Positions 14,660-49,421 of a stretch of 64,000 nt of DNA are shown one piece after another. A program made the translations under genes and the position numbers. Position 1 is the stretch's first letter, and each line of letters opens with the position of its first letter. The notes beneath the pieces are model-generated. The model saw nothing but the letters and a program-made list of their open reading frames with translations, did no database searches and was not told the DNA's origin. The stretch comes from a virus (Duplodnaviria > Heunggongvirae > Uroviricota > Caudoviricetes). The DNA lies in IMG/VR virus record IMGVR_UViG_3300033124_000732. One strand, given 5' to 3'.

Positions 14660-15781
14660 TCAACTATTTTCGGTAAATTCTACAGGATTTTTAAAAGATT
14701 TAAACTGTTGTCCTGTAACTCTAGTGATATCAGCTAGTTCTTCTTCTAGTCGATGTTGGAATTCAGGTTGACAATATGGCTGATACTGATAATCTAATAA
14801 ATTTCTATAGCTGGTGCCCATGCGGTACAACAGGCGATTCTTTACATCGCCCAGTCTGCGATGCTGAGTGATTGAATTATCAAACAGCAACAAATCACCA
14901 TGTTGTGTTTTGTACCAATGATCGTACACATTATTTTCGGCAAACAGTTCAGTTTTGAGCTTGATCAACAATGCATCACTTTCCGGTTGGCTCATGCCCA
15001 CAAATCCTACCACTGTGTTTGGACTAAAATGCAAACCAGCAATTCCGCCGGGACTATTGATCCGCAACGGTAACTGATTGGGAGTTGGACAAAAGTTATG
15101 TTTGAACATGTGGTCTTGAACTAGATTCAATCCAGGATTGATTTTGCCTGGTTGGAATTCATGTTGGCAAACAAGCTCATCTAACTCACTGCGAAATGCT
15201 TCAGACTGATCTTGGTACCATCGAGCAGTGGTACTAAATCCGGTGCTACTGCCAATCACATGATCGATGGCCAACAAGCCCACGCCAGGAGTAAATGCTA
15301 GATGTCCAGATTCATTGCTGTGCCATAACAATTCTCCTTCAGCAAAAATTCCTAATCTACGACCTTGTTCATCTCGTTGTCCGCTAACTCGTTGAGCTTG
15401 TCCTGTACTAACTGGAGCACGAGTATAATCGCTTTCGGTAACAAATGACTGATCCTCAGGAGTTAGTGGATATACACCAGCCTTGAGATCTCTCCACATT
15501 TTATCAAATGCTTGATGTACTGGAAGATTGCTGTCCAGTTGTAGATTGTATTTTTTTAAAAATGTATAAGGACTAAGACTGTTACTTCTACCTAAAGCCA
15601 ACATCAATTCAGACCACCTATCTGGTGTAAGGTTGGTGCCTCTAAAAATTGTAACCAATGTGTCTAAGTGCAGTTTGCCATATACTGTTTGCCATTCTTC
15701 AATGCTGATATTTTCTAAATCAGCGCCGTCGACGAACACGCCGTAGTCACCTAAGCCGGGAATTTTTGTGATAGTTACCAT
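14660..15781 (-). CDS. TauD/TfdA-like Fe(II)/2-oxoglutarate dioxygenase (putative)
   Basis: 373 aa. The WHSNESGH...H pattern resembles the TauD-family HxD/E...H iron-binding site. Assignment from motif memory only. Confidence 0.45.
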   Translation of the reverse strand: MVTITKIPGLGDYGVFVDGADLENISIEEWQTVYGKLHLDTLVTIFRGTNLTPDRWSELMLALGRSNSLSPYTFLKKYNLQLDSNLPVHQAFDKMWRDLKAGVYPLTPEDQSFVTESDYTRAPVSTGQAQRVSGQRDEQGRRLGIFAEGELLWHSNESGHLAFTPGVGLLAIDHVIGSSTGFSTTARWYQDQSEAFRSELDELVCQHEFQPGKINPGLNLVQDHMFKHNFCPTPNQLPLRINSPGGIAGLHFSPNTVVGFVGMSQPESDALLIKLKTELFAENNVYDHWYKTQHGDLLLFDNSITQHRRLGDVKNRLLYRMGTSYRNLLDYQYQPYCQPEFQHRLEEELADITRVTGQQFKSFKNPVEFTENS

Positions 15782-16153
15782 ATGAGATACTTTTTAAGAT
15801 GTGGTAGCTTATTCTGTTACGAGGAAAGCTACCGAAACCCTAAGCAGTGTTTAGGCTGCTAATGCGAACTGTTCGTCGTTTGCGTTTACGTTTTTTGCTT
15901 CTACGGCCAGGAGACCCCAACCCTAACGGCTTCTGCTTTGCCGAGCTGTCCACTCTGTTACTCTTTGCCCTGTCGAAACTATGCAGGCCCATCAAAAACA
16001 TTTTGTAGTTAGAGCCGTTTTCATTCTAACCTTATGGTATTTGACGCATCTTTCGATGGTTACAAAATGTTTATGGTGGACCTGGGGGGATTCGCACCCC
16101 CGTCCAGAACACTTTTCTCTCGGCTTCATACAGCAATAACTTACAGTATATAT

Positions 16154-16342
16154 TTATTCTCGAGGTTTGTCAATAGCTTTGGAGATGATGTCATATACTT
16201 GGGAGTATGCATCTGTTATTTTGTCTAGCTGTTGTTCTGAAACCAAATCTGTATCTTCCAGACTAACCAAGTCCTGGGCCAGATTTTCCTGTAGTTTCTT
16301 TAGTTGATTAATCACATACCTATTTATAGAACAAACGGGCAA
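16154..16342 (-). CDS. possible small acidic protein (62 aa)
   Basis: ORF only. Its start lies inside the terminator hairpin at 16333-16353, so this is doubtful. Confidence 0.25.
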   Translation of the reverse strand: MPVCSINRYVINQLKKLQENLAQDLVSLEDTDLVSEQQLDKITDAYSQVYDIISKAIDKPRE

Positions 16343-21676: not shown

Positions 21677-23308
21677 TCATGCTATTCCTGCACTGTGATA
21701 TCCGCGATGTATTGTACGTGAATCATCTAAGAATTCTTGCCAACGATCAGCGTATTTGACGCTTAACGCATGATTGGAAAACACTTCTCTAAGAATTTGG
21801 TTGACCACGCGAGGCGATACAGAACCACTATTATACAAGTTCAACAGTAGTTGTGTAAAGTATTTTTTTTCCCAAAGTGGTGGAATACTTTTGTTAAACT
21901 CATCAAACTCTTCCAAAGTTACTCCAAACCATGATAGCATTTTGTAAGTAATTTGAGTGAAGTTAAAATACGCTATGTCCAGCTCGTTAAAACTAAAACT
22001 ACCACTGATCATGCTGTGCTTGTTATTTTTGATTTCTCGTGTGCGTATTTGAAATTTTTTCATATACTCGGGATCATACACCGCTGGCGAATTGGGTATG
22101 ATGATCCAGGTGTAAAACTCCAGGCACAAATTCAATTGGTATGCCTCACGCAACAAATGCTGCCAAGTTTTGCGTGTTTGTCCAGGTAGACCTTTGATTC
22201 CTTCTAACGAAAATGTTCGATCAGGAAACCGTGACTTCAAATGGCGGATGTATGTTTTGTGTTCTTCCCAAGAAATATCTGGACGGTCTATGTTGGCCAG
22301 GATTGTGGGATCTATGTCTTGTACTGCAAATTTGCCACCTTCGCACACTCCTGCGTCTATCCAAATTTCTAAAATTTCGTATGCTCGGTCTTTTTTGTTT
22401 TTGCTGAGGTTGGGGCTTTGTGTTTTGATTCCACGTGGCGGCAAAATTTCAGCCATGAGCCGAGCAATTTCTACATCCACTGGCCATTGTCCAAAGTTGG
22501 CATCACTAATGTGTAGTTGTGTAATGCCTAACTCAGCAATCATTTCCAGTTCCGCTCTGTAATCTACCTTGCGTTTGACTGTGGTTGGCCCAAGCCCCGA
22601 AGTCCAGTCACAGAAACTGCAACTGTAGGGACACCCTCTTGAAGTTTCGTAACTGAGCTCAAACTCATATCCATGATATTCTGGATCACCTACCATTTGT
22701 TTTAGTAGATGTTGACTTTCTAAATATGGACTATACTCGGTATTTTTGATGTAGGCTGCTGGAGCCTTTTGCAGTTGATCGTTTTTGACCCACAGCAAGT
22801 TATGAGTGTTTAGAATATTTAAACTTCTGTCATAAAAATGATGACACAATATGTCGTGGAATGCTTGCTCGCCATCAGAGAACACAGCGTAGTCTGCATC
22901 TTCGTAGTCTTGTCTCCAGTCATACGTGCCATGTGCTTCAATACTAGGGCCGCCCACAATCACAATCACATCATGATTGATTTGACTTTTGAGATTGCGT
23001 GTGAGATTGATAATTGTTGGCCGGTTCCAGTTGTAAACACTAAAACATATCACATTGCACTTGTGTTGATTCACATAGTCCACAACTTGTTGTTGTGTCC
23101 AGGTGTTTACACTGATCTTGTTCCAGGTCAGATCTTCGTACAGTGTGGGATTTTTTATTTTAATGTAACTATCAAGATAGCACGGAACAGTACTGAGATA
23201 CACGCTATAGTCATATTCAAATTCTTGGTCCAATAAATTTGTTTCAGCACGATATCTTGCACCGTGAACTACACTTGGACAACTGAAGAATATTTGAATC
23301 TTTGACAT
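21677..23308 (-). CDS. radical SAM enzyme with N-terminal cobalamin-binding-like domain (543 aa)
   Basis: CxxxCxxC in ETSRGCPYSCSFCDW. N-terminal Rossmann-like B12-binding region (VIVIVGGPSIEAHG). Confidence 0.75.
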   Translation of the reverse strand: MSKIQIFFSCPSVVHGARYRAETNLLDQEFEYDYSVYLSTVPCYLDSYIKIKNPTLYEDLTWNKISVNTWTQQQVVDYVNQHKCNVICFSVYNWNRPTIINLTRNLKSQINHDVIVIVGGPSIEAHGTYDWRQDYEDADYAVFSDGEQAFHDILCHHFYDRSLNILNTHNLLWVKNDQLQKAPAAYIKNTEYSPYLESQHLLKQMVGDPEYHGYEFELSYETSRGCPYSCSFCDWTSGLGPTTVKRKVDYRAELEMIAELGITQLHISDANFGQWPVDVEIARLMAEILPPRGIKTQSPNLSKNKKDRAYEILEIWIDAGVCEGGKFAVQDIDPTILANIDRPDISWEEHKTYIRHLKSRFPDRTFSLEGIKGLPGQTRKTWQHLLREAYQLNLCLEFYTWIIIPNSPAVYDPEYMKKFQIRTREIKNNKHSMISGSFSFNELDIAYFNFTQITYKMLSWFGVTLEEFDEFNKSIPPLWEKKYFTQLLLNLYNSGSVSPRVVNQILREVFSNHALSVKYADRWQEFLDDSRTIHRGYHSAGIA

Positions 23309-27481: not shown

Positions 27482-27774
27482 AGCCTGGAATCATAAGTGA
27501 AGGCAGCAAGATATCGCATGCTGGCACGGCTGGGAATGTGCTGGTCACAGAATCGCTGGTACGCCGCCCGCCACTGCGTTTGGACGGGTGCTGGTGCATG
27601 GCAAGCAAGATAATGCAAGTGGCCAAATCTGCGCCCAATGCTGATGTGATTGGGCTTCCAGCCTGCAGGATACCATTTGTTGCGAGTTTGCCAGTTGTAG
27701 TTTACCCAGATACCCATTCGGCGTTCTTGCATGATATACTTTTTAGATATATCTTGTGGTCTAAATCGATTCAT
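27478..27774 (-). CDS. hypothetical protein (98 aa)
   Basis: ORF in the overlapping-gene chain. Confidence 0.4.
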   Translation of the reverse strand: MNRFRPQDISKKYIMQERRMGIWVNYNWQTRNKWYPAGWKPNHISIGRRFGHLHYLACHAPAPVQTQWRAAYQRFCDQHIPSRASMRYLAAFTYDSRL

Positions 27775-28139
27775 TTTTCAACTTCCTCTACGGGTTGATT
27801 GGGAATGTTTTCTGTATCACCATCTTGTGCAGGTACAAAGCCCATGCCTAACATTGTTTCAGTTTCAAAAGGCGTGCAGTGCGGACGGAACACAAACAGT
27901 CGGCAAGTGAGATTATCTTGACTGTAGTAGATCCTATAACTCACACGTTCTACATTTAATACTTGAGCAAGATCGGGTCCATTAAAACTTTCAGGCCATG
28001 CCTCGGTCACACTGGCACGAGTCTTTTCAAAATAGAAATCCTGCATGTGCCGGATGGCCGCTGCCTTGGCTTCCGCTTGCTTTTGCTCACACCATGCAAT
28101 CTTGCGGTCAAGCATTGCCGCAGTGATTTTATTGCTCAT
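27771..28139 (-). CDS. hypothetical protein (122 aa)
   Basis: ORF in the overlapping-gene chain (ATGA overlaps at both ends). Confidence 0.45.
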   Translation of the reverse strand: MSNKITAAMLDRKIAWCEQKQAEAKAAAIRHMQDFYFEKTRASVTEAWPESFNGPDLAQVLNVERVSYRIYYSQDNLTCRLFVFRPHCTPFETETMLGMGFVPAQDGDTENIPNQPVEEVEK

Positions 28140-28312
28140 CTACGACTCCAAGCAATGTACCCACCGTTAGTGTCACTCCATGGGCAGTATCGTTCCCAAA
28201 GTGCTTGACTTGAGTCGGGATTTTCTTTCATCAAACGATCTAGGTCGGGACGAGTTTTATACCCATCCAGACTCCAGTCGTGATTTTTTAGTGCAGTTTC
28301 AAGATCGATCAT
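28136..28312 (-). CDS. small protein (58 aa)
   Basis: ATG 28310-28312 overlaps the SPFH gene's stop. Its stop 28136-28138 overlaps the next gene's ATG. Confidence 0.3.
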   Translation of the reverse strand: MIDLETALKNHDWSLDGYKTRPDLDRLMKENPDSSQALWERYCPWSDTNGGYIAWSRR

Positions 28313-29103
28313 TTTTGCATCATCAGCGCATTGAAGTTTGCAGGAACAACAATCGTTTGCACACGGCCGTTCTTGATACCTTCTGAGATATTCATCATAG
28401 CCTGCGCTTGCATGTAAGCAATTGACTGAGCACCTTGATTACTCAATGCTTGCATACGCTCTGCTTCCATCTTTGCAGTCTTAACTTCAACTTCTTTTTG
28501 TTTCAATTCATTCTTAGCACGAACCAACTCATTTGCACTTGCAACAACTGAATCGGCAGGTACAATATTCCGAATCAACACTTGACCAACAACCAAACTA
28601 CCGTCAAGTTTTTCATCAGCCAAACTCTTTTGAATTTGTTCTTTGATTGCCTGTTCCATCACTTGACGATTGTCAGCCATATCCAATGCCTCATACTTGC
28701 GAGCTTCTTTGTAGATAGCATTACGAGCAGTTTGGACAATATAATTAAACATCAAATAAATGTCGCCGTTTTGTCGAGCATGGAATGCTTGGCTCTTGGT
28801 TGAGTACAGCTCTGCAACCTGTGCTTGATTGATGTTATAGATAACCACAGCATCAAAGTCTTTCATTGTTGAGTTATCTTTGGCCACTGGGGTCATGTCG
28901 TCCAATCTAACATTCACATCCTTGATTGGAAATGTAAGAACATCACCCCAGAAAGTTTGATTAAACGAGCCAGGCAAAAGTTCACCTTGCTGTACTTGTT
29001 TATCAAAGCCAACACGGACACCAACTTCACCTGTTTCAATACGAGTACAACCTGTTGCCAGCACAGCCGCGGCAAGAACGGAGAGAGTCAAAATACGTTT
29101 CAT
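28309..29103 (-). CDS. SPFH/Band-7 (HflK/C, prohibitin-like) domain lipoprotein
   Basis: Lipobox LATGC after the signal peptide. SPFH-like core followed by a long coiled coil (ELVRAKNELKQKEVEVKTAKMEAERMQAL). Confidence 0.7.
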   Translation of the reverse strand: MKRILTLSVLAAAVLATGCTRIETGEVGVRVGFDKQVQQGELLPGSFNQTFWGDVLTFPIKDVNVRLDDMTPVAKDNSTMKDFDAVVIYNINQAQVAELYSTKSQAFHARQNGDIYLMFNYIVQTARNAIYKEARKYEALDMADNRQVMEQAIKEQIQKSLADEKLDGSLVVGQVLIRNIVPADSVVASANELVRAKNELKQKEVEVKTAKMEAERMQALSNQGAQSIAYMQAQAMMNISEGIKNGRVQTIVVPANFNALMMQK

Positions 29104-29112
29104 TTTATATCC

Positions 29113-29289
29113 TTAAAAAAGCACCACAAGGGCGATTAGACTACCAAAAGTAAGTATAGCACAAAATGCACTGTAAGTCAAGAGTTTTACCAAACTCCAT
29201 GTTTCTTTTCCGGACATGTTCCGCATGTACCGAATACCAAAAAAGAACATGCCAAACACCACAACAAAAGCTAGAATTATTCTAATCAT
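29113..29289 (-). CDS. small two-TM membrane protein (58 aa)
   Basis: MIRIILAFVVVFGMFFFGIRY...TFGSLIALVVLF. The ATG overlaps the upstream stop (ATGA). Confidence 0.35.
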   Translation of the reverse strand: MIRIILAFVVVFGMFFFGIRYMRNMSGKETWSLVKLLTYSAFCAILTFGSLIALVVLF

Positions 29290-29513
29290 TCTTCAACTCC
29301 GAAATGTTCTTTAATCTCGCTAATACATTGCGAACCACCATTCAACCAAGTGTCTACCGATTCGGGAACAGGATCACTAATCGCTTGCTCACAACAACCG
29401 ATACATTCTCTTACAATCAACAGGGCAAACTTTTCCAGCTTGGTTGGGATACCATCTGGATTGTATGTTGGTAATCCAGCCTCATGAGCAAGTTCTCTAA
29501 TTCGATCGTTCAT
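29286..29513 (-). CDS. small-protein family member (N-term MNDRIRELAHEAG, core FALLIVRECIG, C-term HFGVEE)
   Basis: Shares N-terminal, core and C-terminal blocks with 29697, 30815, 31822 and 32046. Start taken at the internal Met at 29513. Confidence 0.55.
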   Translation of the reverse strand: MNDRIRELAHEAGLPTYNPDGIPTKLEKFALLIVRECIGCCEQAISDPVPESVDTWLNGGSQCISEIKEHFGVEE

Positions 29514-29700
29514 TTTGTTCTTTCTCATAACAAGGAACACAATATGTATGTTGGGTACCGGGACCACCCATACCACTAATCCAACCACCGCAACAACCGC
29601 AAGTCATAACAGCCGCTGTATACATATAACCTTTAGGCTGAACAATTGATTGCCAATTATCTTTACCAGCTTTACGATAACCTAAAATTTCATCAGTCAC
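29497..29700 (-). CDS. small Cys-rich protein (67 aa)
   Basis: TCGCCGGW...CVPC cysteine cluster. ATGA overlap with the upstream gene. Confidence 0.4.
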   Translation of the reverse strand: MTDEILGYRKAGKDNWQSIVQPKGYMYTAAVMTCGCCGGWISGMGGPGTQHTYCVPCYEKEQNERSN

Positions 29701-29987
29701 TCTTCAACTCCGAAATGTTTCTTAATAAGTTTGGCGTTTTTCTTCAGCAAGAAACTGCCATAATGTTTAACGGCTTCTTCGTAGCCTTCCATCCAATCAG
29801 TGGTTTTGTTGTGTGATTCTGGTTCTACCGTTCTAATAGTAAATTGTTTGTTGCCATTTTCTATTAATATATCAGCACACTCCATAACAATCAATTCGGC
29901 AAACCTTTCTATTGCTTTGTGTCTGGCACCAGGATTATCAAATTCTTTGTCTACTTGTTCAGCAAATAGTTTAATCTTTTCATTCAT
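29697..29987 (-). CDS. small-protein family member (MNEKIKLFAEQ, FAELIVMECA, HFGVEE)
   Basis: Family motifs present. 96 aa. Confidence 0.55.
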   Translation of the reverse strand: MNEKIKLFAEQVDKEFDNPGARHKAIERFAELIVMECADILIENGNKQFTIRTVEPESHNKTTDWMEGYEEAVKHYGSFLLKKNAKLIKKHFGVEE

Positions 29988-30325
29988 ACATTCCTCAATC
30001 CTACTCTACTATAACCCAACTTTGATTTTATCTCTTTACGGCCTTGTTTGTCCAACGGACGAATCTCTGGATACTTTTTGGGTTTGTTTGGCCATCCTCT
30101 TGGTTCAACGGTTTCACCTGTCAATTCATAACGAAAGTCTGGATCGTAAACCATGTTGCCAGAACTCTTGGGCACAACCTTGCCGTCCTTGTGGACAAAG
30201 ATGACGCCTCGTTGCATACAGAAACACCAACCTTTGTCGGTCATTACATTACCATTTATGGTGCCTACATATTTGACAACATTGCCACGGTGCATTTCTT
30301 TAATTGCTTCGTGGTAGTCAATCAT
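29984..30325 (-). CDS. hypothetical protein (113 aa)
   Basis: ORF with ATGA overlaps. Confidence 0.45.
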   Translation of the reverse strand: MIDYHEAIKEMHRGNVVKYVGTINGNVMTDKGWCFCMQRGVIFVHKDGKVVPKSSGNMVYDPDFRYELTGETVEPRGWPNKPKKYPEIRPLDKQGRKEIKSKLGYSRVGLRNV

Positions 30326-30561
30326 TCTTTAACTCCAAACAATCTATTAAATTCGTCAATGATACCCGACCCCATACCACCCACCGCAAAGAAATAATCA
30401 AAATTGTCATAGTCATTGCCCTTTTGATAGTGTTCAGTTCTACCACCAATCACGGCATAGTCATTGGTAATGTATTCATTCCATTGCTTTGCCCATGACA
30501 ATGCTTTATCAGCATTCACTCTGGGAACGGTAACCCAATTCTTTACAATTTCTTCGTTCAT
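30322..30561 (-). CDS. small protein ending LFGVKE (79 aa), distant family member
   Basis: C-terminal FGVKE block and shared 3' nucleotide element. Confidence 0.45.
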   Translation of the reverse strand: MNEEIVKNWVTVPRVNADKALSWAKQWNEYITNDYAVIGGRTEHYQKGNDYDNFDYFFAVGGMGSGIIDEFNRLFGVKE

Positions 30562-30650
30562 TCTTCAACTCTGAAATGTTATATAAATCATTGGTCCAAA
30601 CATTATAACACATACCAAAAGAAAAAGCAAGGCCGATCTCCAATGCCAGA

Positions 30651-30818
30651 TCATTCTTTGCCACTGAAGTTTTGTTCGATCAGAAATTGAGTATGGTAAT
30701 AATCACCTTCAATTTCAACCGCCAGTTCATCGAGTTTTCTTTTAATCAGAGACTGAACCTGTTCGTAAGTTTGTCCAAACCTTGGGGTTGTGATAAAATC
30801 AATTTTGACTTCAATCAT
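30651..30818 (-). CDS. small protein (about 55 aa) ending in KE
   Basis: ATG overlaps the stop of 30815..31033. Ends GGCAAAGAATGA, a variant of the conserved 3' element. Confidence 0.3.
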   Translation of the reverse strand: MIEVKIDFITTPRFGQTYEQVQSLIKRKLDELAVEIEGDYYHTQFLIEQNFSGKE

Positions 30819-31033
30819 TCTTTAACTCCGAAATGTTTCAACATAAACTTTTTCTTGTATCCTGCCATATCCAGTTCATGTTCAGCATACTCGGCACATT
30901 CCCGAACAATCAACTCGGCGAACTTTTCCTGATCCAATGCTTTGATCTCAGTATATCCACCATCAAGGTATCCTACAATCTTTTGCGCCTGTTCAGCAAG
31001 TTTTTGAATTCGTTCGTTCATCACACTCTCCAA
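30815..31033 (-). CDS. small-protein family member (MNERIQKLAEQAQ, FAELIVRECAEYA, HFGVKE)
   Basis: Canonical family member. 72 aa. Confidence 0.55.
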   Translation of the reverse strand: MESVMNERIQKLAEQAQKIVGYLDGGYTEIKALDQEKFAELIVRECAEYAEHELDMAGYKKKFMLKHFGVKE

Positions 31034-31467
31034 ATTTCATCAAAGCCTTCCGACAAGTCTGGCTCTTCCCAGTCTTCAATCATGCGCTCGATCACATCGG
31101 GTGGAATGGTTTTGCCAGGACGGCTGGCCAATCGTCGTTCAAGTTCTGCCGGCTCGGGCGTGGGAAAGACCACAGCAATGGCCGAGTAGTCGGGCAACAA
31201 GCGAAACTTCTTGGCCCGGCTTGCCCGTGTGGTGCTGGTCTGATCCCAGATGATGTCGTTGTTGTTGGCCTGTGCAGTCAACGCATGGTTGGTCATGAGC
31301 CGCACTGCCACAGGCATGTATTCTTCAAACACTTCTGAATAGGTCTTGCCCTGCTGACGAGCATAATCTTCCACCCAGGGATCTGTGCTGACCACACTCA
31401 AGCCCAAGGCCCAGACCTGGTCTTTGATCCAGGTGCTTTTGCCTGATCCTGGCACTCCTACCAACAT
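31021..31467 (-). CDS. P-loop NTPase / kinase-like protein (about 148 aa)
   Basis: Walker A LVGVPGSGKSTW at the N-terminus from the internal Met at 31467. Nucleoside/polynucleotide-kinase-like size. Confidence 0.55.
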   Translation of the reverse strand: MLVGVPGSGKSTWIKDQVWALGLSVVSTDPWVEDYARQQGKTYSEVFEEYMPVAVRLMTNHALTAQANNNDIIWDQTSTTRASRAKKFRLLPDYSAIAVVFPTPEPAELERRLASRPGKTIPPDVIERMIEDWEEPDLSEGFDEIWRV

Positions 31468-31474
31468 GTACAAT

Positions 31475-31699
31475 TTAGGCACTGTGAACTCCAAAATGTT
31501 CTTTGAACAAATCTTTACCACTAATTGCTCTGCCCGTGGTATAAACAATGTCAAAACTATCATTCTCAATGTGATACCGATTGCGGTCGCAGTTTACATA
31601 CTCGCCCCGGTCATCAGTATACACTTGTCGCATCTGGGTAAAGGTACTATCCACAACACCATCAAAGATAACTCGGGTAGTGATTTTACGCTTGTTCAT
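31475..31699 (-). CDS. small protein (74 aa) ending FKEHFGVHSA
   Basis: Degenerate version of the family C-terminus. Confidence 0.4.
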   Translation of the reverse strand: MNKRKITTRVIFDGVVDSTFTQMRQVYTDDRGEYVNCDRNRYHIENDSFDIVYTTGRAISGKDLFKEHFGVHSA

Positions 31700-31821
31700 T
31701 CTTCAACCCCAAATCAATTTTTTAACAAAACTAAAAACGACCATAAAGATCACGAAGTAAGCAGCCGCACCTACCAAGAGTAGGTATACAATGGCCCACC
31801 AGCCTGCCCGCTCACCTGCCG

Positions 31822-32049
31822 TCATTCTTCAACTCCGAAATGTTGTCTAATCTCATTGTGGGCACTATCACCGAATTGATTATGAAACCCTAATACTGTA
31901 TCAGCACATTCCCGAACAATCAACTCGGCAAACTTTTCAACATATTCAGTCAAATCAACATAATCTTCCCACGAGTTGTATACTTTACCATCAGTGGTTT
32001 CATACACTAACTGCGATTGTAGAGCAAGTTGTTTAATTCGTTCATTCAT
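31822..32049 (-). CDS. small-protein family member (MNERIKQLALQ, FAELIVRECADTV, HFGVEE)
   Basis: Canonical family member. 75 aa. Confidence 0.55.
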   Translation of the reverse strand: MNERIKQLALQSQLVYETTDGKVYNSWEDYVDLTEYVEKFAELIVRECADTVLGFHNQFGDSAHNEIRQHFGVEE

Positions 32050-32285
32050 TCTTTAACTCCAAATTGTCGTGCAATCCGATATGCAACAATGCCCACTGCA
32101 TTTGATTCGCTGAGACTGTTGGCATTTTCAAGTTGATCCTGCCAATTTTTAGCAATATTCATACATTCCCGAACAATCAACTCGGCGAACTTTTCCTCGT
32201 CAAACCCAAATGTTAACAGTTCACCATTGACACCATAAGTTTCAATTCGACACTGTTCAGCAAGTTCTTGAATTCGTTCGTTCAC
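32046..32285 (-). CDS. small-protein family member (VNERIQELAEQ, FAELIVRECMN, QFGVKE), probable GTG start
   Basis: Family motifs begin at a GTG (32283-32285) that overlaps the upstream gene's stop (GTGA). The ORF track extends it to 32363 with a non-family leader. Confidence 0.45.
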   Translation of the reverse strand: MNERIQELAEQCRIETYGVNGELLTFGFDEEKFAELIVRECMNIAKNWQDQLENANSLSESNAVGIVAYRIARQFGVKE

Positions 32286-32560
32286 TTCAAGTCGCCTTTG
32301 AGGGTGTGCCACATGCGGGGATCGGTGCCCAAGTAGATGCGATACTTTTGATAATTGCGCCACTGGCTCAGACGGTTCACACCACGCTCAACCCAGTCAA
32401 ACATGGCACTGCGGAACCACAAGGGATTCACAATGGCCACAATCAAGGCTGTGGCCACAGGCACAATCAGCACAGCCACAACCAGCCAATGAAATGTCAT
32501 TGCACGGTAGTAACGGCCACCACCGGGCACCAGTTCAATTTCTTTGTTCATATTTGCCAT
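32282..32560 (-). CDS. small membrane protein (92 aa)
   Basis: Hydrophobic segment WLVVAVLIVPVATALIVAIV. Confidence 0.4.
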   Translation of the reverse strand: MANMNKEIELVPGGGRYYRAMTFHWLVVAVLIVPVATALIVAIVNPLWFRSAMFDWVERGVNRLSQWRNYQKYRIYLGTDPRMWHTLKGDLK

Positions 32561-32962: not shown

Positions 32963-33391
32963 TTACTCTCCTTGTGCCTGGCAGGCTTTCAAAAACTCCA
33001 CACATGCGGCTTCGGTGCGCTTGGTCACCACCACTCGACCACCCCAGAAGCCCACAAACAGATTGCGGTGCGGCACAAACTTCACCTCACCGTCCGCACC
33101 TGTATGCTTTTGACGAGCCACTGGCTTTGCAGGTGCGGCCTTTTTTGCAGGTGCTTTAGGCACTGCAACCACCACAGGCTTTACTGCCACTGCCTTTGCA
33201 GGTGCAGGCACTTTCAACGGTGTCGGCGCAAAGCCATGCTTGGCATCATAGCGGGCTATGGCTTTTTCATCCATGCCCCATGTGGCCAGCAGTCGTTTGA
33301 CTTCCGTGCCGGGCAGTTGATTCCAATGTATGATAGGGTCAGTCCAGTTGGTCATGTTGGGCTCCTTAATAAGATTGATGTGAATGTCCAA
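32963..33391 (-). CDS. hypothetical protein with Ala/Pro/Lys-rich linker (142 aa)
   Basis: ORF with a PAPAKAVAVKPVVVAVPKAPAKKAAPAKP low-complexity segment. Confidence 0.45.
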   Translation of the reverse strand: MDIHINLIKEPNMTNWTDPIIHWNQLPGTEVKRLLATWGMDEKAIARYDAKHGFAPTPLKVPAPAKAVAVKPVVVAVPKAPAKKAAPAKPVARQKHTGADGEVKFVPHRNLFVGFWGGRVVVTKRTEAACVEFLKACQAQGE

Positions 33392-33585: not shown

Positions 33586-33602
33586 TATGTGTGTATTATA
33601 GC
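33586..33602 (-). promoter_or_regulatory. extended -10 promoter TGCTATAATACACACAT (copy 1)
   Basis: On the minus strand reads TGnTATAAT, about 25 nt upstream of the RBS/ATG of 33366..33566. An identical 17-mer is repeated at 33949-33965. Confidence 0.5.
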
Positions 33603-33619
33603 AAAACGGTGATTTGGTG

Positions 33620-33988
33620 TCAACCGTTTTGCTTCACGCGAACATCCGTGTTCAGCGCAGGTGCATACTTTTGTATTAACTCGCGCTCCAACTTGTGTGC
33701 GGCATCTTTGCCACGCACAATGTCGATGATGGTGTAGTTGATAGCCGATTCGCCAGCGGCACGAATTGCTTCGTACAGGTTCCAGGCTTTGTCTTCTGTA
33801 CGGCTACGGTAGATGTGCTTGTTCACACGGCTACGGAGCGACATGTTAATTGTGCGCTGGGTTTTTGCGGTAATACCAATGTAGTACTCAAATCCAATTT
33901 GGATACAGTACACTATGTGGCTTCGATCAGTACGTTTCTTTCGCATCATGTGTGTATTATAGCATTTCGGGCATTTTCCGTCAACCAA
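33620..33988 (-). CDS. GIY-YIG family endonuclease with N-terminal CxxC zinc-finger-like segment
   Basis: [14 protein letters not shown] (GIY...YIG) and downstream [11 protein letters not shown]. The Met-Met pair at 33944-33949 sits directly after the TGCTATAAT copy 2, so the transcript may be leaderless. Confidence 0.6.
33949..33965 (-). promoter_or_regulatory. extended -10 promoter TGCTATAATACACACAT (copy 2)
   Basis: Identical 17-mer. On the minus strand, TGCTATAAT-ACACAC-ATGATG. Confidence 0.45.
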
Positions 33989-43628: not shown

Positions 43629-44729
43629 TTAGAATAAATCCACAGTTTCCCAAGGCAAATAGTCTTTGCCAAAATGCCCGTAGTTAGTTGTTGTACTATA
43701 GATAGGGCGGAACAAGTCAAAACGTTCAATAATACCCTTGGGTGTCAAGTCAACGTTATCCTGAATCCATTTAGTTAGATCACGTCCTTGTTGTGCGTCA
43801 GCTGTTTCCACGTAGAAACTCATGGGTTGTGCAAGTCCAATTGCGTAACTGATCTGCACTGTAGCCCACGGTGCTTGACCACTTGCCACAATGTTCTTGG
43901 CAATCCAGCGTGTTAAGTAGGCAGCACTGCGATCCACTTTAGTAGGATCTTTGCCGCTGAAGGCTCCGCCACCATGAGGACTATACCCGCCGTAAGTGTC
44001 AACAATAATCTTGCGGCCAGTAAGCCCAGTATCGCCATCAGGCCCACCAATAACAAATCTACCAGTAGGGTTAATATAAAATTCAGTTTTGTCATCAACA
44101 TATTTTTCAGGAAGAGTACCACGGATTACACTTTCAACAGACATTCGAACTTGGTCGATGTCCACGGACTCATGATGCTGAGTTGAGCAAACTACTTTGG
44201 CAATGCGTTTGGGAGTACCATTGTCGTTGTATTCAAACGTTACTTGACTTTTGGCGTCTGGTCCTAACCACGGCAGTGCTAAACTTTTTCGTACACGAGT
44301 CAAAGTTTCTACAATACGATGGCTCCAATAGATTGCACTGGGCATATGATTATCAGTTTCGTTGCAGGCATAACCAAACATCAAGCCCTGATCGCCTGCG
44401 CCAAACGTATCTGTACCCAGTGCAATATCTGCACTTTGCCCGTGTAACAAGTTGGTAATTTCTGCCGTACGCCAATCAAAACCTGACTGTTCGTAACCCA
44501 CATCCTTGATAACTTTTCTCACTGCTGATTCAACTTCCTCAGCATGTAAAACGCCTTTGTATTCTCCTGCCACCACCACACGATTGGTAGTAACCAACGT
44601 TTCGCATGCGCAACGTAGAGCGGGATCCTGTTTAGCCATCACAATGTCTAGCACTGCATCGCTAATAGCATCCGCGATTTTGTCCGGATGTCCTTCTGAC
44701 ACACTTTCACTTGTAAATAGATAACTCAT
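43629..44729 (-). CDS. metK: S-adenosylmethionine synthetase
   Basis: SEGHPDKIAD signature. GAGDQG and DxGxTGRKII blocks. 366 aa, full length. Confidence 0.9.
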   Translation of the reverse strand: MSYLFTSESVSEGHPDKIADAISDAVLDIVMAKQDPALRCACETLVTTNRVVVAGEYKGVLHAEEVESAVRKVIKDVGYEQSGFDWRTAEITNLLHGQSADIALGTDTFGAGDQGLMFGYACNETDNHMPSAIYWSHRIVETLTRVRKSLALPWLGPDAKSQVTFEYNDNGTPKRIAKVVCSTQHHESVDIDQVRMSVESVIRGTLPEKYVDDKTEFYINPTGRFVIGGPDGDTGLTGRKIIVDTYGGYSPHGGGAFSGKDPTKVDRSAAYLTRWIAKNIVASGQAPWATVQISYAIGLAQPMSFYVETADAQQGRDLTKWIQDNVDLTPKGIIERFDLFRPIYSTTTNYGHFGKDYLPWETVDLF

Positions 44730-46629: not shown

Positions 46630-47476
46630 AGGGACTGTCCTTCCATTGTCTTAATCGTTTGTGTGGATCTTGCAGGACCATTCTGGCCCAGATGTTTGGA
46701 TTTTTACCGGTCATTGAATCTCTAAACCACGTGGTATCGCGGCCTATGCTGTCAAGATAGTCTGCAATTTTTTCAGTTTCTTCAACCCTGCGTTTGCGCC
46801 AGGTAATGTGATTGAAATCTCTAGGATCATTGCCGGGCATGTTTTCCAACATGATACGTTCTTTGAATGTTTCATCCAAGTTCTCGCCAGTAAGATCATA
46901 GCGTTCATGGTGTACCATTACAGGAATTGTTTTCACAATATCCAACATCCAAGCCACTTGGCTGGTCCAGGCATCGTTGATTTGATGCGGACTCAAATGG
47001 CCAGTAATTTCCACCCACTTCTTTGGCAGGATAGGAAAGATAGCATAAGGGTGTTCGTGATTGGTTTCGGCACGGAGCAAATTGAATTCTTGCCCGTTGT
47101 CTCGAATCACCTGATCCCAATCCTGTGTTTTCATCACAGCATCGTCATTCCAAAAGAACAACCAAGAGCCTTGACTGTGCTTGGCCAACTCGTTAAGGTA
47201 CTCGTTTAGTCGCATGTACCCTAATCTTTCAAACTGTATGGCGCTGTATTCTACACCAAGGTCATCAAGATAAGGTTGTACGACATCCACAAAGTGTTTG
47301 ATGTTTTCACTATCATCATTATCAAATGCCAACATCACTTCTATTCGACTGGGGTCTTTGGCCCGGTCAAGTAGAGTGCGTAGGCATTGTTCTAGTGGTT
47401 TTGGTCTGCCACGAGTGGGCAATAAAATACTGATGTCGATGGGATTGTCAAGGGGTAATAAGTTCTCTGTTGTCAT
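46619..47476 (-). CDS. glycosyltransferase family 2-like protein
   Basis: ISILLPTRGRP...MLAFDNDDSE, a GT-A DxD-containing N-terminal fold. 285 aa. Confidence 0.6.
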   Translation of the reverse strand: MTTENLLPLDNPIDISILLPTRGRPKPLEQCLRTLLDRAKDPSRIEVMLAFDNDDSENIKHFVDVVQPYLDDLGVEYSAIQFERLGYMRLNEYLNELAKHSQGSWLFFWNDDAVMKTQDWDQVIRDNGQEFNLLRAETNHEHPYAIFPILPKKWVEITGHLSPHQINDAWTSQVAWMLDIVKTIPVMVHHERYDLTGENLDETFKERIMLENMPGNDPRDFNHITWRKRRVEETEKIADYLDSIGRDTTWFRDSMTGKNPNIWARMVLQDPHKRLRQWKDSPFEQ

Positions 47477-49421
47477 ATTCTATTTCAGGTAAGTTGGCTG
47501 AATTAGTTTTTGTTATTGTTGTTTTTCCAAAATTCCGCTTGCGAGCAAAATACATGTTCTCTAAGAACCGATCCATGCTCATGGTTTTATCTTCCACGCT
47601 GTCAAATTTGTACAAGCATGGTGTGTTGATGTCAGCATCGTCCAGTAGATATCCAAGAAAGTCATAGTCAAACTTTTGTTGAATTGGCAATGCTGGTAAA
47701 TCTTTGTAATCAATCACATAGTTTCTCTGAAACTGCAACAACTGATTTAGTATGTTGCTGTCAATAGTATACGTGGTTCTTACAAAGTTGTCAATGATAT
47801 CGAACACATGATTGATCTTTTGTTGCTGTTGCATATACAAAGTGGTTCGATGCACAAGATTCCATCCAAACACTTCGATGTTGCCAATTCGAGGATGATT
47901 GATACGACCGTCTGTGGTCCAGTTTCTAAAGTAACTGCGTGTCTCATCAAACTGTTGTTGAAACCATGCATCGCTTTCAATATACTTGTACAAACTGTCG
48001 TAGAACTCACTGTAGTCAATGTCATGAGCTTTGGCCAAGTATCTAGCAATGTACGTGGTCAACCCGTTGATGTGAAAAGTTTGAATAAAACTGTTCCATA
48101 CCAGTGTGTCCAACATCATTTCTCGTGGAATGTCTTTGGTTCCTACCACAACATCCACACACTCGTCCATGTCTACATCACCATAGCTGCCACTCATGTA
48201 GTCATACACTGGCACTGAATCCAGCTTCCACATTCGTTTTTGCAAGAGATTCATCTCGGCATTTTCCAACAACTGCGCTTGGAGAATGTTCACACCAGTA
48301 TGGTTACCTGCACGGAAGATTTGCCAAAAAGCATTTTTCCAAGTTTCCACAGTTTCACCTGGCAAGCCCAAGATAACTTCTGTGTACACAGGAATATTGT
48401 TGCGATCACACAAAGCAAAGATTTCGTCAATCTTGTGTTGATCAAGATTTCTACGCTTGATGTTTTCCAACACATCGTGGTCCATGCTTTGCACACTCAC
48501 AGTAAGGCCTTGACCAAAGTTGGGGCTTTCGTCGATCAATTTCTTTACAATGCCCACTACTTCGTTCTTTTGATTCTTGGCCCATGTCATAGAAAATGAC
48601 GCCAGCTTGGCCCATTGCTTTTGTACTTCAATCAACTTGTCCACAATCATGTTGTCACGTTCAATGAACATGCCAAAGTTGGCATCTGTGATTGTGACAA
48701 ATCCGCAATGGCGACCAATCCATTCTAATTCATGGAACACTCTAGTGAGTTCAAATTTCTTGACCTTGTTGTAAGTGAGACTGCCCCAGTCACAAAAGGT
48801 ACACTGATAAGGGCAACCGCGATTGGTTTCCAATGTAGCATTCCAAATTACATCAGGATTTTCAGCTATGATTCGATCAAAGATGCCGGCAAGGTAAGGA
48901 CTGGGGATTTGATCTAGATTGTCGATTCTGGCACAATCTCCAGTGTCTACTAGCCCTGCTGGTGTGTTAATCAACAAGCCAGGAATGTGCGTAAAGTCTG
49001 TGTCAAAATCTTCTAGGATGCGTTTGAATGTGATCTCGCCTTCCATCTTGCTCACAAGATCCATGAAAGGTTCTTTCACAAACAATTCAGGATCCGTAAT
49101 AGCAGGCTCGGGTCCACCAAATATAATTTTTACTTTGGGATTGAGTTCTTTGATTCGACGTGCTAGTTTGTAGTTGTATCTGTGATTCCATACATAGGCA
49201 CTAAACGCCACAATGTCATTGTGTTGCAATCTTGCGGCTGCTTCTTCAATGGGCTCTCTACGCCAAATTAATTCATCAATTTCCCAGGCATTTTTAATAT
49301 GCTCAAACCCAAAGGCGTAACTCAAAATCACACCTGCAGAATACGGCAAGTAGTAGGCATTGAATTCTTTAGGCCCTTGTTGAAAGTTGGGCTGTACAAA
49401 ACTTATTGTTTTTTTGTTCAT
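47448..49421 (-). CDS. cobalamin-binding-domain radical SAM enzyme (657 aa)
   Basis: N-terminal B12-binding-like Rossmann segment (KVKIIFGGPEP). CxxxCxxC in TNRGCPYQCTFCDWGS. Confidence 0.75.
   Translation of the reverse strand: MNKKTISFVQPNFQQGPKEFNAYYLPYSAGVILSYAFGFEHIKNAWEIDELIWRREPIEEAAARLQHNDIVAFSAYVWNHRYNYKLARRIKELNPKVKIIFGGPEPAITDPELFVKEPFMDLVSKMEGEITFKRILEDFDTDFTHIPGLLINTPAGLVDTGDCARIDNLDQIPSPYLAGIFDRIIAENPDVIWNATLETNRGCPYQCTFCDWGSLTYNKVKKFELTRVFHELEWIGRHCGFVTITDANFGMFIERDNMIVDKLIEVQKQWAKLASFSMTWAKNQKNEVVGIVKKLIDESPNFGQGLTVSVQSMDHDVLENIKRRNLDQHKIDEIFALCDRNNIPVYTEVILGLPGETVETWKNAFWQIFRAGNHTGVNILQAQLLENAEMNLLQKRMWKLDSVPVYDYMSGSYGDVDMDECVDVVVGTKDIPREMMLDTLVWNSFIQTFHINGLTTYIARYLAKAHDIDYSEFYDSLYKYIESDAWFQQQFDETRSYFRNWTTDGRINHPRIGNIEVFGWNLVHRTTLYMQQQQKINHVFDIIDNFVRTTYTIDSNILNQLLQFQRNYVIDYKDLPALPIQQKFDYDFLGYLLDDADINTPCLYKFDSVEDKTMSMDRFLENMYFARKRNFGKTTITKTNSANLPEIEYDNRELITP

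Follow-up and report, generated by a model that had tools for sequence, protein, structure and literature searches.

The virus record IMGVR_UViG_3300033124_000732 (IMG/VR; Caudoviricetes) includes a 64,000-nucleotide (nt) stretch of DNA, referred to here as the window, whose minus strand holds from 32560 to 29100 an unbroken string of around 16 small open reading frames (ORFs). Five of them are paralogs that share three blocks (MNERI..LAEQ at the N terminus, (K)FAELIVREC in the core, and FGV(E/K)E at the C terminus), and the DNA of the last block is repeated at the junctions between genes, where it closes one ORF and opens the next. This region is probably a mosaic array of accessory genes, in which the blocks, conserved as DNA, are points of recombination and the junction block is a portable module for the initiation and coupling of translation, as judged from the comparisons described below.

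According to this mechanism, the string would be a hyperplastic accessory-gene array, in which the genes of the family follow the layout N block, V1, core block, V2, C block, with V1 and V2 as variable segments. The three blocks, conserved at their synonymous sites as well and found in hundreds of phage contigs, would be the points of crossover or gene conversion at which V1, V2, and the neighbouring genes are reassorted combinatorially, most likely by homologous recombination and not by a dedicated recombinase. The C block would be the gene junction, its last 15 nt (GGAGTTGAAGAATGA) consisting of GGAG, an A-rich spacer of 7 nt, and an ATG that overlaps a TGA, and it would both end the upstream ORF, usually as ...HFGVEE, and start the next one. 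The small genes may be translated by termination-reinitiation coupling, while the same module appears to have been captured by unrelated small genes and to be present in leaders. The proteins themselves could be diversified binders made early in infection, with variable surfaces on a conserved helical scaffold.

The junction element and the family in the window

A previous sequence-only reading of this DNA had noticed an element of roughly 20 nt recurring about eight times on the minus strand, and counting has confirmed it. The 21-mer CATTTCGGAGTTGAAGAATGA has six minus-strand matches with up to three mismatches (29286, 29697, 30558, 30815, 31822, and 32046), while the mean in shuffled sequence is 0.01 and none of 100 shuffles reaches six. 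The 15-nt core occurs, with at most one mismatch, in eight copies, all on the minus strand within 29286-32060, the extra ones being located at 30322 and 31696. No 15-mer of equal quality is present in the rest of the 64 kb, and the nearest match outside the array is a copy with two mismatches at 27771. The possibility that the element is the general ribosome-binding site of this genome was rejected, as no further copies exist in the 64 kb beyond the array.

Behind each of the eight copies, an ORF of 40-113 codons starts on the ATG or GTG of the element (Table 1). In the arrangement proposed originally, a GGAG Shine-Dalgarno (SD) sequence followed by an ATG that overlaps the TGA and on which the next gene begins, the spacer had to be corrected and measures 7 nt instead of 8. 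The element had also been reported where the protein frame differs, and this holds for the copy at 31696, which is read in another frame, as well as for the copy at 30558, which is non-coding. Upstream of the latter, at 25 nt, a putative extended -10 promoter (TTGCTT at 30630-30625 and TATAAT at 30607-30602) was read by eye, below the threshold of the promoter scan.

The promoter scan found no promoter at any of the eight junctions, the strong promoters at 33623 and 33984 lying outside the array, and a scan of the eight elements found no terminator-like site. A structured RNA at the junctions, for instance a fold that sequesters the SD or a hairpin of CAU with AUG, was also rejected, as the minimum free energy has a z score of around 0 at seven of the eight copies (-2.15 at 30558) and no common fold emerges. 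The Rfam covariance models gave no match at E <=0.1 between 27500 and 34000.

With regard to the proteins, the earlier count of at least five paralogs with N, core, and C blocks has been confirmed as five, with corrected gene limits and a GTG start for member 5, which is identical to the metagenome protein P0022. Two more ORFs, of 79 aa (amino acids) at 30322-30561 and 74 aa at 31475-31699, had been considered distant members. They were rejected as such, since the family profile matches only their last 11-16 residues and hhalign gives probabilities of 16% and 11%, respectively.

Degenerate versions of the element are found in and near the array. In the ninth junction (31475-31498), GGAG-N6-GTG is the probable start of the gene for the AAA_33 P-loop kinase. 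Another lies in the interval 30601-30673 (minus strand), where the 55-aa ORF ends in FSGKE on the degenerate junction GGCAAAGAATGA, whose overlapping ATG opens only a hydrophobic mini-ORF of 17 codons (MIWHWRSALLFLLVCVI), followed by the putative extended -10 promoter. Beyond the array, a 122-aa ORF (27771-28139, minus strand) ends in the degenerate element GAAGTTGAAAAATGA (...PVEEVEK), and its homolog in a viral contig (L024:6966-7329) ends with the exact element (...PVEEGVEE). The unrelated family to which this 122-aa ORF belongs has therefore either gained the junction or is losing it.

Constraint on synonymous sites in the three blocks

Codon usage was studied in 80 viral loci, which were fetched by means of the N-terminal and core peptides only, in order to avoid circularity. 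Members were called with a hidden Markov model lacking the tail, the tail set comprised 212 deduplicated members ending in FG[VI] plus zero to three residues, and the rest of the same proteins was used as background. In the tail, Gly is encoded by GGA in 202 of 212 members (95%, against 27% in the background), Val by GTT in 181 of 198 (background 41%), His by CAT in 163 of 171 (background 66%), and Glu by GAA at 293 of 300 positions (98%, background 77%), and the stop codon is TGA in 181 of 212 (85%). The synonymous sites of the tail are strongly constrained, yielding GGAG-N7-ATGA, with the SD inside the upstream ORF and 7 nt before the start, as in coupled gene pairs. At the protein level the last residues are not fixed (E, K, S, L, or none), while GGAG-N7-ATG is retained.

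In 210 of 261 family genes (80%), the stop codon overlaps the start (as ATGA, GTGA, or TAATG) of a downstream ORF that is 30 codons long or more, compared to 21% of the controls, which were non-family ORFs of at least 100 codons from the same loci; when the overlap window was slightly widened, the figure for the family was 195 of 211 (92%). A total of 364 unique 15-mer sites were classified according to how they are read: 88% are read as ...GVEE, 4% stop one to three codons early (HFGVE, with TAATG), 4% correspond to a frame-3 ORF that ends at the internal TGA, and 4% are non-coding or short, including copies located directly after a foreign TAA (L030, L106, L002, and L004). Family members in six loci (L005, L039, L061, L074, L090, and L106) read the intact CATTTCGGAGTTGA in frame 3 and end in ...RTFRS, so that HFGVEE is not encoded. 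In addition, the element was found at the 3' end of 42 non-family ORFs, distributed in 38 sequence clusters and including homologs of two ORFs of the window. These data on the tail, the overlap, and the out-of-frame and non-coding copies fit a portable module made up of an SD, a 7-nt spacer, and an ATG overlapping the TGA.

The same type of constraint is observed away from the junctions. The core block has the consensus AAG TTC GCC GAG TTG ATT GTK MGG GAA TGT, with AAG at 95% (37% in the background), GCC at 91% (28%), GAG at 91% (23%), and TTG at 88% (32%). In the N block (ATG AAC GAA CGA ATT .. CTT GCT .. CAG), CGA reaches 93% (28%), CTT 89% (18%), and CAG 88% (32%). Both blocks use, at around 90%, codons that the family otherwise avoids. 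The commonest base at third positions has a frequency of 0.76-0.98 in most codons of all three blocks, compared to 0.35-0.5 in V1 and V2, with exceptions that include F72 (0.52), V35 (0.45), R36 (0.54), and A9 (0.50). As the core block lies in the middle of the gene, translation initiation cannot explain its conservation, and as the N and core blocks are equally constrained at synonymous sites, coupling cannot be the general cause.

These results bear directly on the claim that part of the conservation resides at the RNA level, in a cassette for translational coupling. In its strictest form, the 20-mer would be selected as an RNA-level SD, spacer, and start, and recombination would have no special role. 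The codons GGA, GAA, and TGA of the tail, the excess of stop/start overlaps, the exact 15-mers in non-coding leaders and in frame 3, and the ORFs behind all the copies of the window are what such a cassette would produce, and to this extent the claim fits the data on the junction. However, it does not reach the N and core blocks, which are not at gene junctions and are equally conserved with non-preferred codons. Moreover, GGA is kept in 14 of the 16 members that have no coupled downstream ORF (a small sample), conservation extends upstream (AAA CAT TTC) further than an SD needs, and the reassortment of V1 and V2 is left unexplained. Coupling as the whole explanation is accordingly regarded as possible but rather unlikely.

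Mosaicism and breakpoints

When V1 and V2 were clustered separately at 80% nucleotide identity, 240 unique members yielded 200 V1 and 204 V2 clusters. Among those with more than one member, 24 of 26 V2 clusters are found with two or more V1 clusters, and every one of the 31 V1 clusters with two or more V2 clusters, the switch point being the core block. For instance, the V1 segment ...TTIEEHKWGVSYDNFNKE occurs with three unrelated V2 segments. Between most members, V1 and V2 cannot be aligned. Breakpoints are also found at the gene junction, as 25 of 122 pairs taken from different contigs, with a V2 identity of 85% or more, turn to unrelated sequence exactly at the junction ATG. Across loci, members are always co-oriented (none of 187 loci has them on both strands), their number has a median of 3 and a maximum of 12 (in loci of up to ~15 kb), and the GC content of the loci ranges from 34 to 52%.

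The one close relative of the window, in rearranged form, is the contig L198 (ENA contig NODE_23047, 1904 bp, 2x coverage), in which every breakpoint falls in a block or a junction. Here, the 58-aa ORF and the Band_7 gene come straight after the 40-aa ORF, which equals a 2.4-kb deletion between the junction copies at 31696 and 29286, and Band_7 is followed by a chimera of members 4 and 5. The chimeric protein (P0034) consists of the N half of member 4 and the C half of member 5, fused at the core block.

Since V1, V2, and the downstream genes reassort at the blocks, recombination or gene conversion is proposed as the main explanation of the conservation at the DNA level. A more far-reaching version would be a dedicated system of combinatorial diversification, in which fixed crossover sites allow V1 and V2 half-cassettes to be reshuffled continually, both inside a genome and between co-infecting ones, generating thousands of three-helix binder variants for an arms race with the host, and in which the junction ensures that new combinations and captured genes are immediately translated. 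This version is considered unlikely; if true, it would represent a phage counterpart of antigenic-variation cassettes, possibly with a recombinase of its own.

Several observations weigh against the proposal of a recombining mosaic array with a portable junction. All comparison sequences are metagenome assemblies, and although they were deduplicated, the counts are not phylogenetically independent events and some of the mosaics could be assembly chimeras, among them L198, whose coverage is only 2x. The blocks, of around 24-36 nt each, are short for efficient homologous recombination. SD-like motifs precede 35% of the long ORFs of the window, compared to 10% of random positions, which indicates that SD dependence in the host is moderate. 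The wobble position of the tail Phe is free (116 TTC and 96 TTT), and this, together with the relaxed third positions of Ile68 and Lys69, indicates that selection acts on the tail at the protein level too, so that the peptide may have a role of its own. Finally, searches of the PDB by sequence and of the PDB and BFVD by fold provided no match that gives the family proteins a function.

Other explanations of the conserved blocks

If the tail (...I-K-x-H-F-G-V-E-E) were a C-terminal peptide signal for a partner, a protease, or packaging, the identity of the DNA would be a by-product of recent spread. Such a signal would agree with the presence of the tail on at least 38 unrelated sequence clusters, with the 88% of sites read in frame, with the free Phe wobble and the relaxed third position of Ile68, and with the model of member 1, in which H70 and F71 end helix 3. 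By contrast, it is difficult to reconcile with the family members that read the intact block in frame 3, with the non-coding copies and the out-of-frame copy of the window at 31696, with the extreme codon choice at Gly, Val, and Glu, and with end residues that vary while GGAG-N7-ATG stays. For these reasons, this explanation is thought to be decidedly unlikely.

The element could also be the operator of a single regulator defining one post-transcriptional regulon, such as a RegB-like endoribonuclease cutting at GGAG, a RegA-like repressor, or a small RNA, by analogy with RegB and RegA of phage T4. A regulator of this kind would be compatible with the fact that the whole 15-mer, spacer included, is exact in non-coding contexts, and with the confinement of the element to a single array, whose genes are probably early and lie behind consensus sigma-70 promoters. 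Nevertheless, the lack of a conserved RNA structure at the junctions and of an Rfam match speaks against it, and it explains neither the conservation of the core block nor the mosaicism, which makes it very improbable. Ordinary recent tandem duplication and/or assembly artefacts, with no selection at the DNA level, are the least credible explanation and almost certainly wrong, since, even if the paralogs are adjacent and co-oriented and the low-coverage L198 could be chimeric, the V1 and V2 segments of the paralogs cannot be aligned whereas the blocks hardly differ across hundreds of contigs of 34-52% GC, the family comprises thousands of clusters at 50% identity, and the blocks would be shorter than the final k-mers of common assemblers.

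Distribution, annotation, and predicted structure of the family

The conservation of the family extends well beyond this genome. A profile built from the five paralogs retrieved at least 7,968 proteins, none of which has a name beyond 'hypothetical' and almost all of which come from metagenome collections. An exhaustive HMMER search (E <=1e-3) identified 7,448 clusters when grouped at 50% identity. For the exact 21-mer, two of whose wobble positions were left open, the matches listed come from more than 120 viral contigs of IMG/VR, often with two to six copies per contig. Prokaryotic genomes totalling 596 Gb contain it just 17 times, always in bins of metagenome-assembled genomes, and among GenBank phages it is found only in two metagenomic 'Manatee Spring' records.

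No family protein matched a Pfam family above the cut-off, PHROGs gave no match for seven proteins of the window or for 87 family members, and NCBIfam none for the family. The best match in a sequence search of the PDB (E 0.006) is a spurious one to Pumilio. Foldseek found no solved analogue in the PDB (best E 0.87), and its matches in BFVD are exclusively uncharacterized proteins of uncultured phages. The literature, searched for the motifs (HFGVEE, FAELIVRE, MNERI...) and for comparable accounts, yielded nothing relevant apart from the papers on PeSL cassettes discussed below. Taken together with the Rfam result, these searches agree with the initial impression that both the family and the cassette are undescribed.

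When member 1 was modelled with AlphaFold and 87 homologs, the result was a three-helix bundle with a predicted local distance difference test score of 79 and a predicted template modelling score of 0.69, in support of the helical structure suspected at the outset. Its helices span residues 3-11, 22-46, and 55-71, and each of the three blocks falls in one of them: helix 1 holds the N block, helix 2 has the core block at its middle, and helix 3 ends with I-K-x-H-F. The family would be formed by three-helix proteins of 70-100 aa.

Comparison with known systems and significance

The closest functional analogues are the promoter-early stem-loop (PeSL) cassettes of T4-type phages, which are small expression signals, repeated within hyperplastic regions, by means of which modules are shuffled (Arbiol et al. 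2010, PMC2839356; Comeau et al. 2014, PMC4122927). As with PeSLs, the repeats described here are short, conserved, and placed among the small ORFan genes of a hyperplastic region, and they would serve both expression and homologous exchange between otherwise unrelated sequences. Breakpoints of indels and replacements are located at the repeats in both cases, in this family at the junction ATG and, for V1 and V2, at the core block. However, the junction element is not a PeSL. PeSLs are intergenic and combine a promoter with a terminator, whereas the three blocks lie inside coding sequence and the junction consists of a ribosome-binding site with a stop/start overlap, and has neither promoter, terminator, nor stem-loop according to the promoter scan and folding. 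Furthermore, shuffling here also takes place within the protein, between V1 and V2.

Translational coupling through an ATGA overlap of stop and start, with the SD lying within the preceding gene, is textbook knowledge, and each junction normally has its own sequence. The array shares with classical coupling the GGAG 7 nt before an ATG that overlaps the TGA, and genes that are dense and co-oriented. It differs in that a single module of 15-21 nt is repeated verbatim at many junctions in hundreds of phages, fixes the C-terminal peptide of unrelated proteins, and also appears as a free-standing leader. In lambdoid phages, the modular theory proposed that short homologies at gene borders guide the exchange of modules, although the known cases are few, weakly conserved, and debated. 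In contrast to those boundary sequences, the block reported here is exact and highly repeated, and many pairs break at it.

Conserved motifs that separate variable segments and provide homology for swaps are also known from the VENN motif of CdiA-CT and from pilin minicassettes. The arrangement is alike, but the proteins of those systems are large toxins that are secreted, or pilins, and are accompanied by immunity genes or silent cassettes, whereas the proteins of the array are predicted to be three-helix bundles of 70-100 aa, cytoplasmic in appearance and encoded in phage arrays, and no toxin or immunity signature was found for them. A target of a diversity-generating retroelement, which would show adenine-specific changes between a template repeat and a variable repeat and lie near a reverse transcriptase, is also disfavoured, as V1 and V2 are of unequal length and cannot be aligned, in contrast to segments altered by point mutations, although no search aimed at a reverse transcriptase was made. 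The unusual feature of the system is the verbatim reuse of one 15-21-nt junction in many genes and hundreds of phages, along with intragenic blocks that allow half-genes to be reassorted.

Among the families of small proteins in environmental phages that lack annotation, this is one of the larger, and its motifs are conserved as DNA and not as protein alone. One practical consequence is that an HFGVEE tail and an MN... start can be common to unrelated ORFans by virtue of the shared junction module, a likeness which should not be taken as homology. The array also offers a testable example of how hyperplastic regions could be kept expressible during shuffling, by means of a plug-in module of 15 nt that supplies stop, ribosome site, and start. 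If the shuffling is active, the family would be a natural scaffold on which to study or engineer combinatorial protein diversification in phages.

Genomic setting of the array

The window looks like part of a large phage genome, with almost all its genes on the minus strand. A megablast search with the region and a tblastn search with two family proteins against 50,697 GenBank phage records recovered only two metagenomic 'Caudoviricetes sp.' records, from Manatee Spring, so that no cultured relative is at hand; the source is probably a large uncultured phage of freshwater origin. The window carries 30 tRNA genes between 2286 and 26897, a near-complete set, in addition to a transfer-messenger RNA (tmRNA), and encodes a family-B DNA polymerase and an asparagine synthase. 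The coordinates of the array and of other features are compiled in Table 1.

Table 1. Features of the array and its surroundings in the window. Peptides are C-terminal ends up to the stop codon unless they are shown with their N terminus; SAM, S-adenosylmethionine.
Feature	Position	Strand	Remarks
Junction copy, CAATTTGGAGTTAAAGAATGA	32046-32066	-	Encodes QFGVKE; its ATG is the start of member 4
Junction copy, exact 21-mer	31822-31842	-	Encodes HFGVEE; ATG starts 40-aa membrane-type ORF 31703-31825
Junction copy in other frame, TTTGGGGTTGAAGAATGA	31696-31713	-	40-aa ORF ends at internal TGA (...LIWG); ATG starts 74-aa ORF 31475-31699
Degenerate ninth junction, CATTTTGGAGTTCACAGTGCCTAA	31475-31498	-	HFGVHSA; CATTTTGGAGTTCACAGTG at 31480-31498
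Junction copy	30815-30835	-	HFGVKE; ATG starts 55-aa ORF 30651-30818
Non-coding junction copy, CATTTCAGAGTTGAAGAATGA	30558-30578	-	TAA directly upstream; in leader of 79-aa ORF 30322-30561
Junction copy on non-family protein	30322-30342	-	LFGVKE; ATG starts 113-aa ORF 29984-30325
Junction copy with GTG for ATG, GAAGAGTGA	29697-29717	-	Starts 67-aa Cys-rich ORF 29497-29700
Junction copy, exact 21-mer	29286-29306	-	ATG starts 58-aa membrane-type ORF 29113-29289
Member 5, 79 aa	32046-32285	-	GTG start overlaps TGA of upstream 92-aa ORF; ends QFGVKE
Member 4, 75 aa	31822-32049	-	MNERIKQLALQ...HFGVEE; ATG inside junction element of member 5
Member 3, 68 aa	30815-31021	-	MNERIQKLAEQ...HFGVKE
Member 2, 96 aa	29697-29987	-	MNEKIKLFAEQ...HFGVEE; ATG overlaps TGA of 113-aa ORF
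Member 1, 75 aa	29286-29513	-	MNDRIRELAHE...HFGVEE; most widespread subtype (IGCCEQ...)
Core block of member 5	32163-32195	-	GAAAAGTTCGCCGAGTTGATTGTTCGGGAATGT, EKFAELIVREC
Core blocks of other members	31906-31938, 30896-30928, 29877-29909, 29401-29435	-	
N block of member 5	32253-32285	-	GTG/ATG AAC GAA CGA ATT CAA GAA CTT GCT GAA CAG
N blocks of other members	32017-32049, 30989-31021, 29955-29987, 29481-29513	-	
79-aa ORF, unrelated protein	30322-30561	-	Tail and MNE start only; L045 homolog also ends HFGVEE
74-aa ORF, unrelated protein	31475-31699	-	HFGV tail only
AAA_33 P-loop kinase gene	31021-31482	-	PF13671, E 2.5e-21; probable start codon
SPFH/Band 7 protein	28309-29103	-	Directly downstream of array; lipoprotein-like N terminus; Pfam E 1.4e-18
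Consensus sigma-70-type promoter	33595-33623	-	Upstream of array; TTGACA-17-TATAAT, with TG
Second sigma-70-type promoter copy	33956-33984	-	Near-consensus; promoter scan
tmRNA gene	15760-16166	-	Tag peptide ANDEQFALAA
Two paralogous B12-binding radical-SAM enzymes	21677-23308 and 47448-49421	-	
SAM synthetase	43629-44729		
TauD-like dioxygenase	14660-15781		

The promoters at 33623 and 33984 probably drive the co-oriented gene string. Both (TTGACA/TTGACG-17-TATAAT, with TG) are contained in a 39-nt direct repeat (33587-33625 and 33948-33986, minus strand) whose copies are 79% identical, and the two promoter-bearing repeats flank an ORF with weak similarity to GIY-YIG proteins (33620-33988). 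The SPFH/Band 7 protein encoded next to the array is unusual cargo for a phage. The two radical-SAM enzymes, the SAM synthetase, and the TauD-like dioxygenase may take part in a pathway of nucleotide or DNA modification or in some other auxiliary metabolism. Lastly, the ORF at 32963-33391 (minus strand) contains short direct repeats at 33117-33214, which encode a low-complexity stretch rich in Ala, Pro, Lys, and Val (PAPAKAVAVKPVVVAVPKAPAKKAAPAKP).

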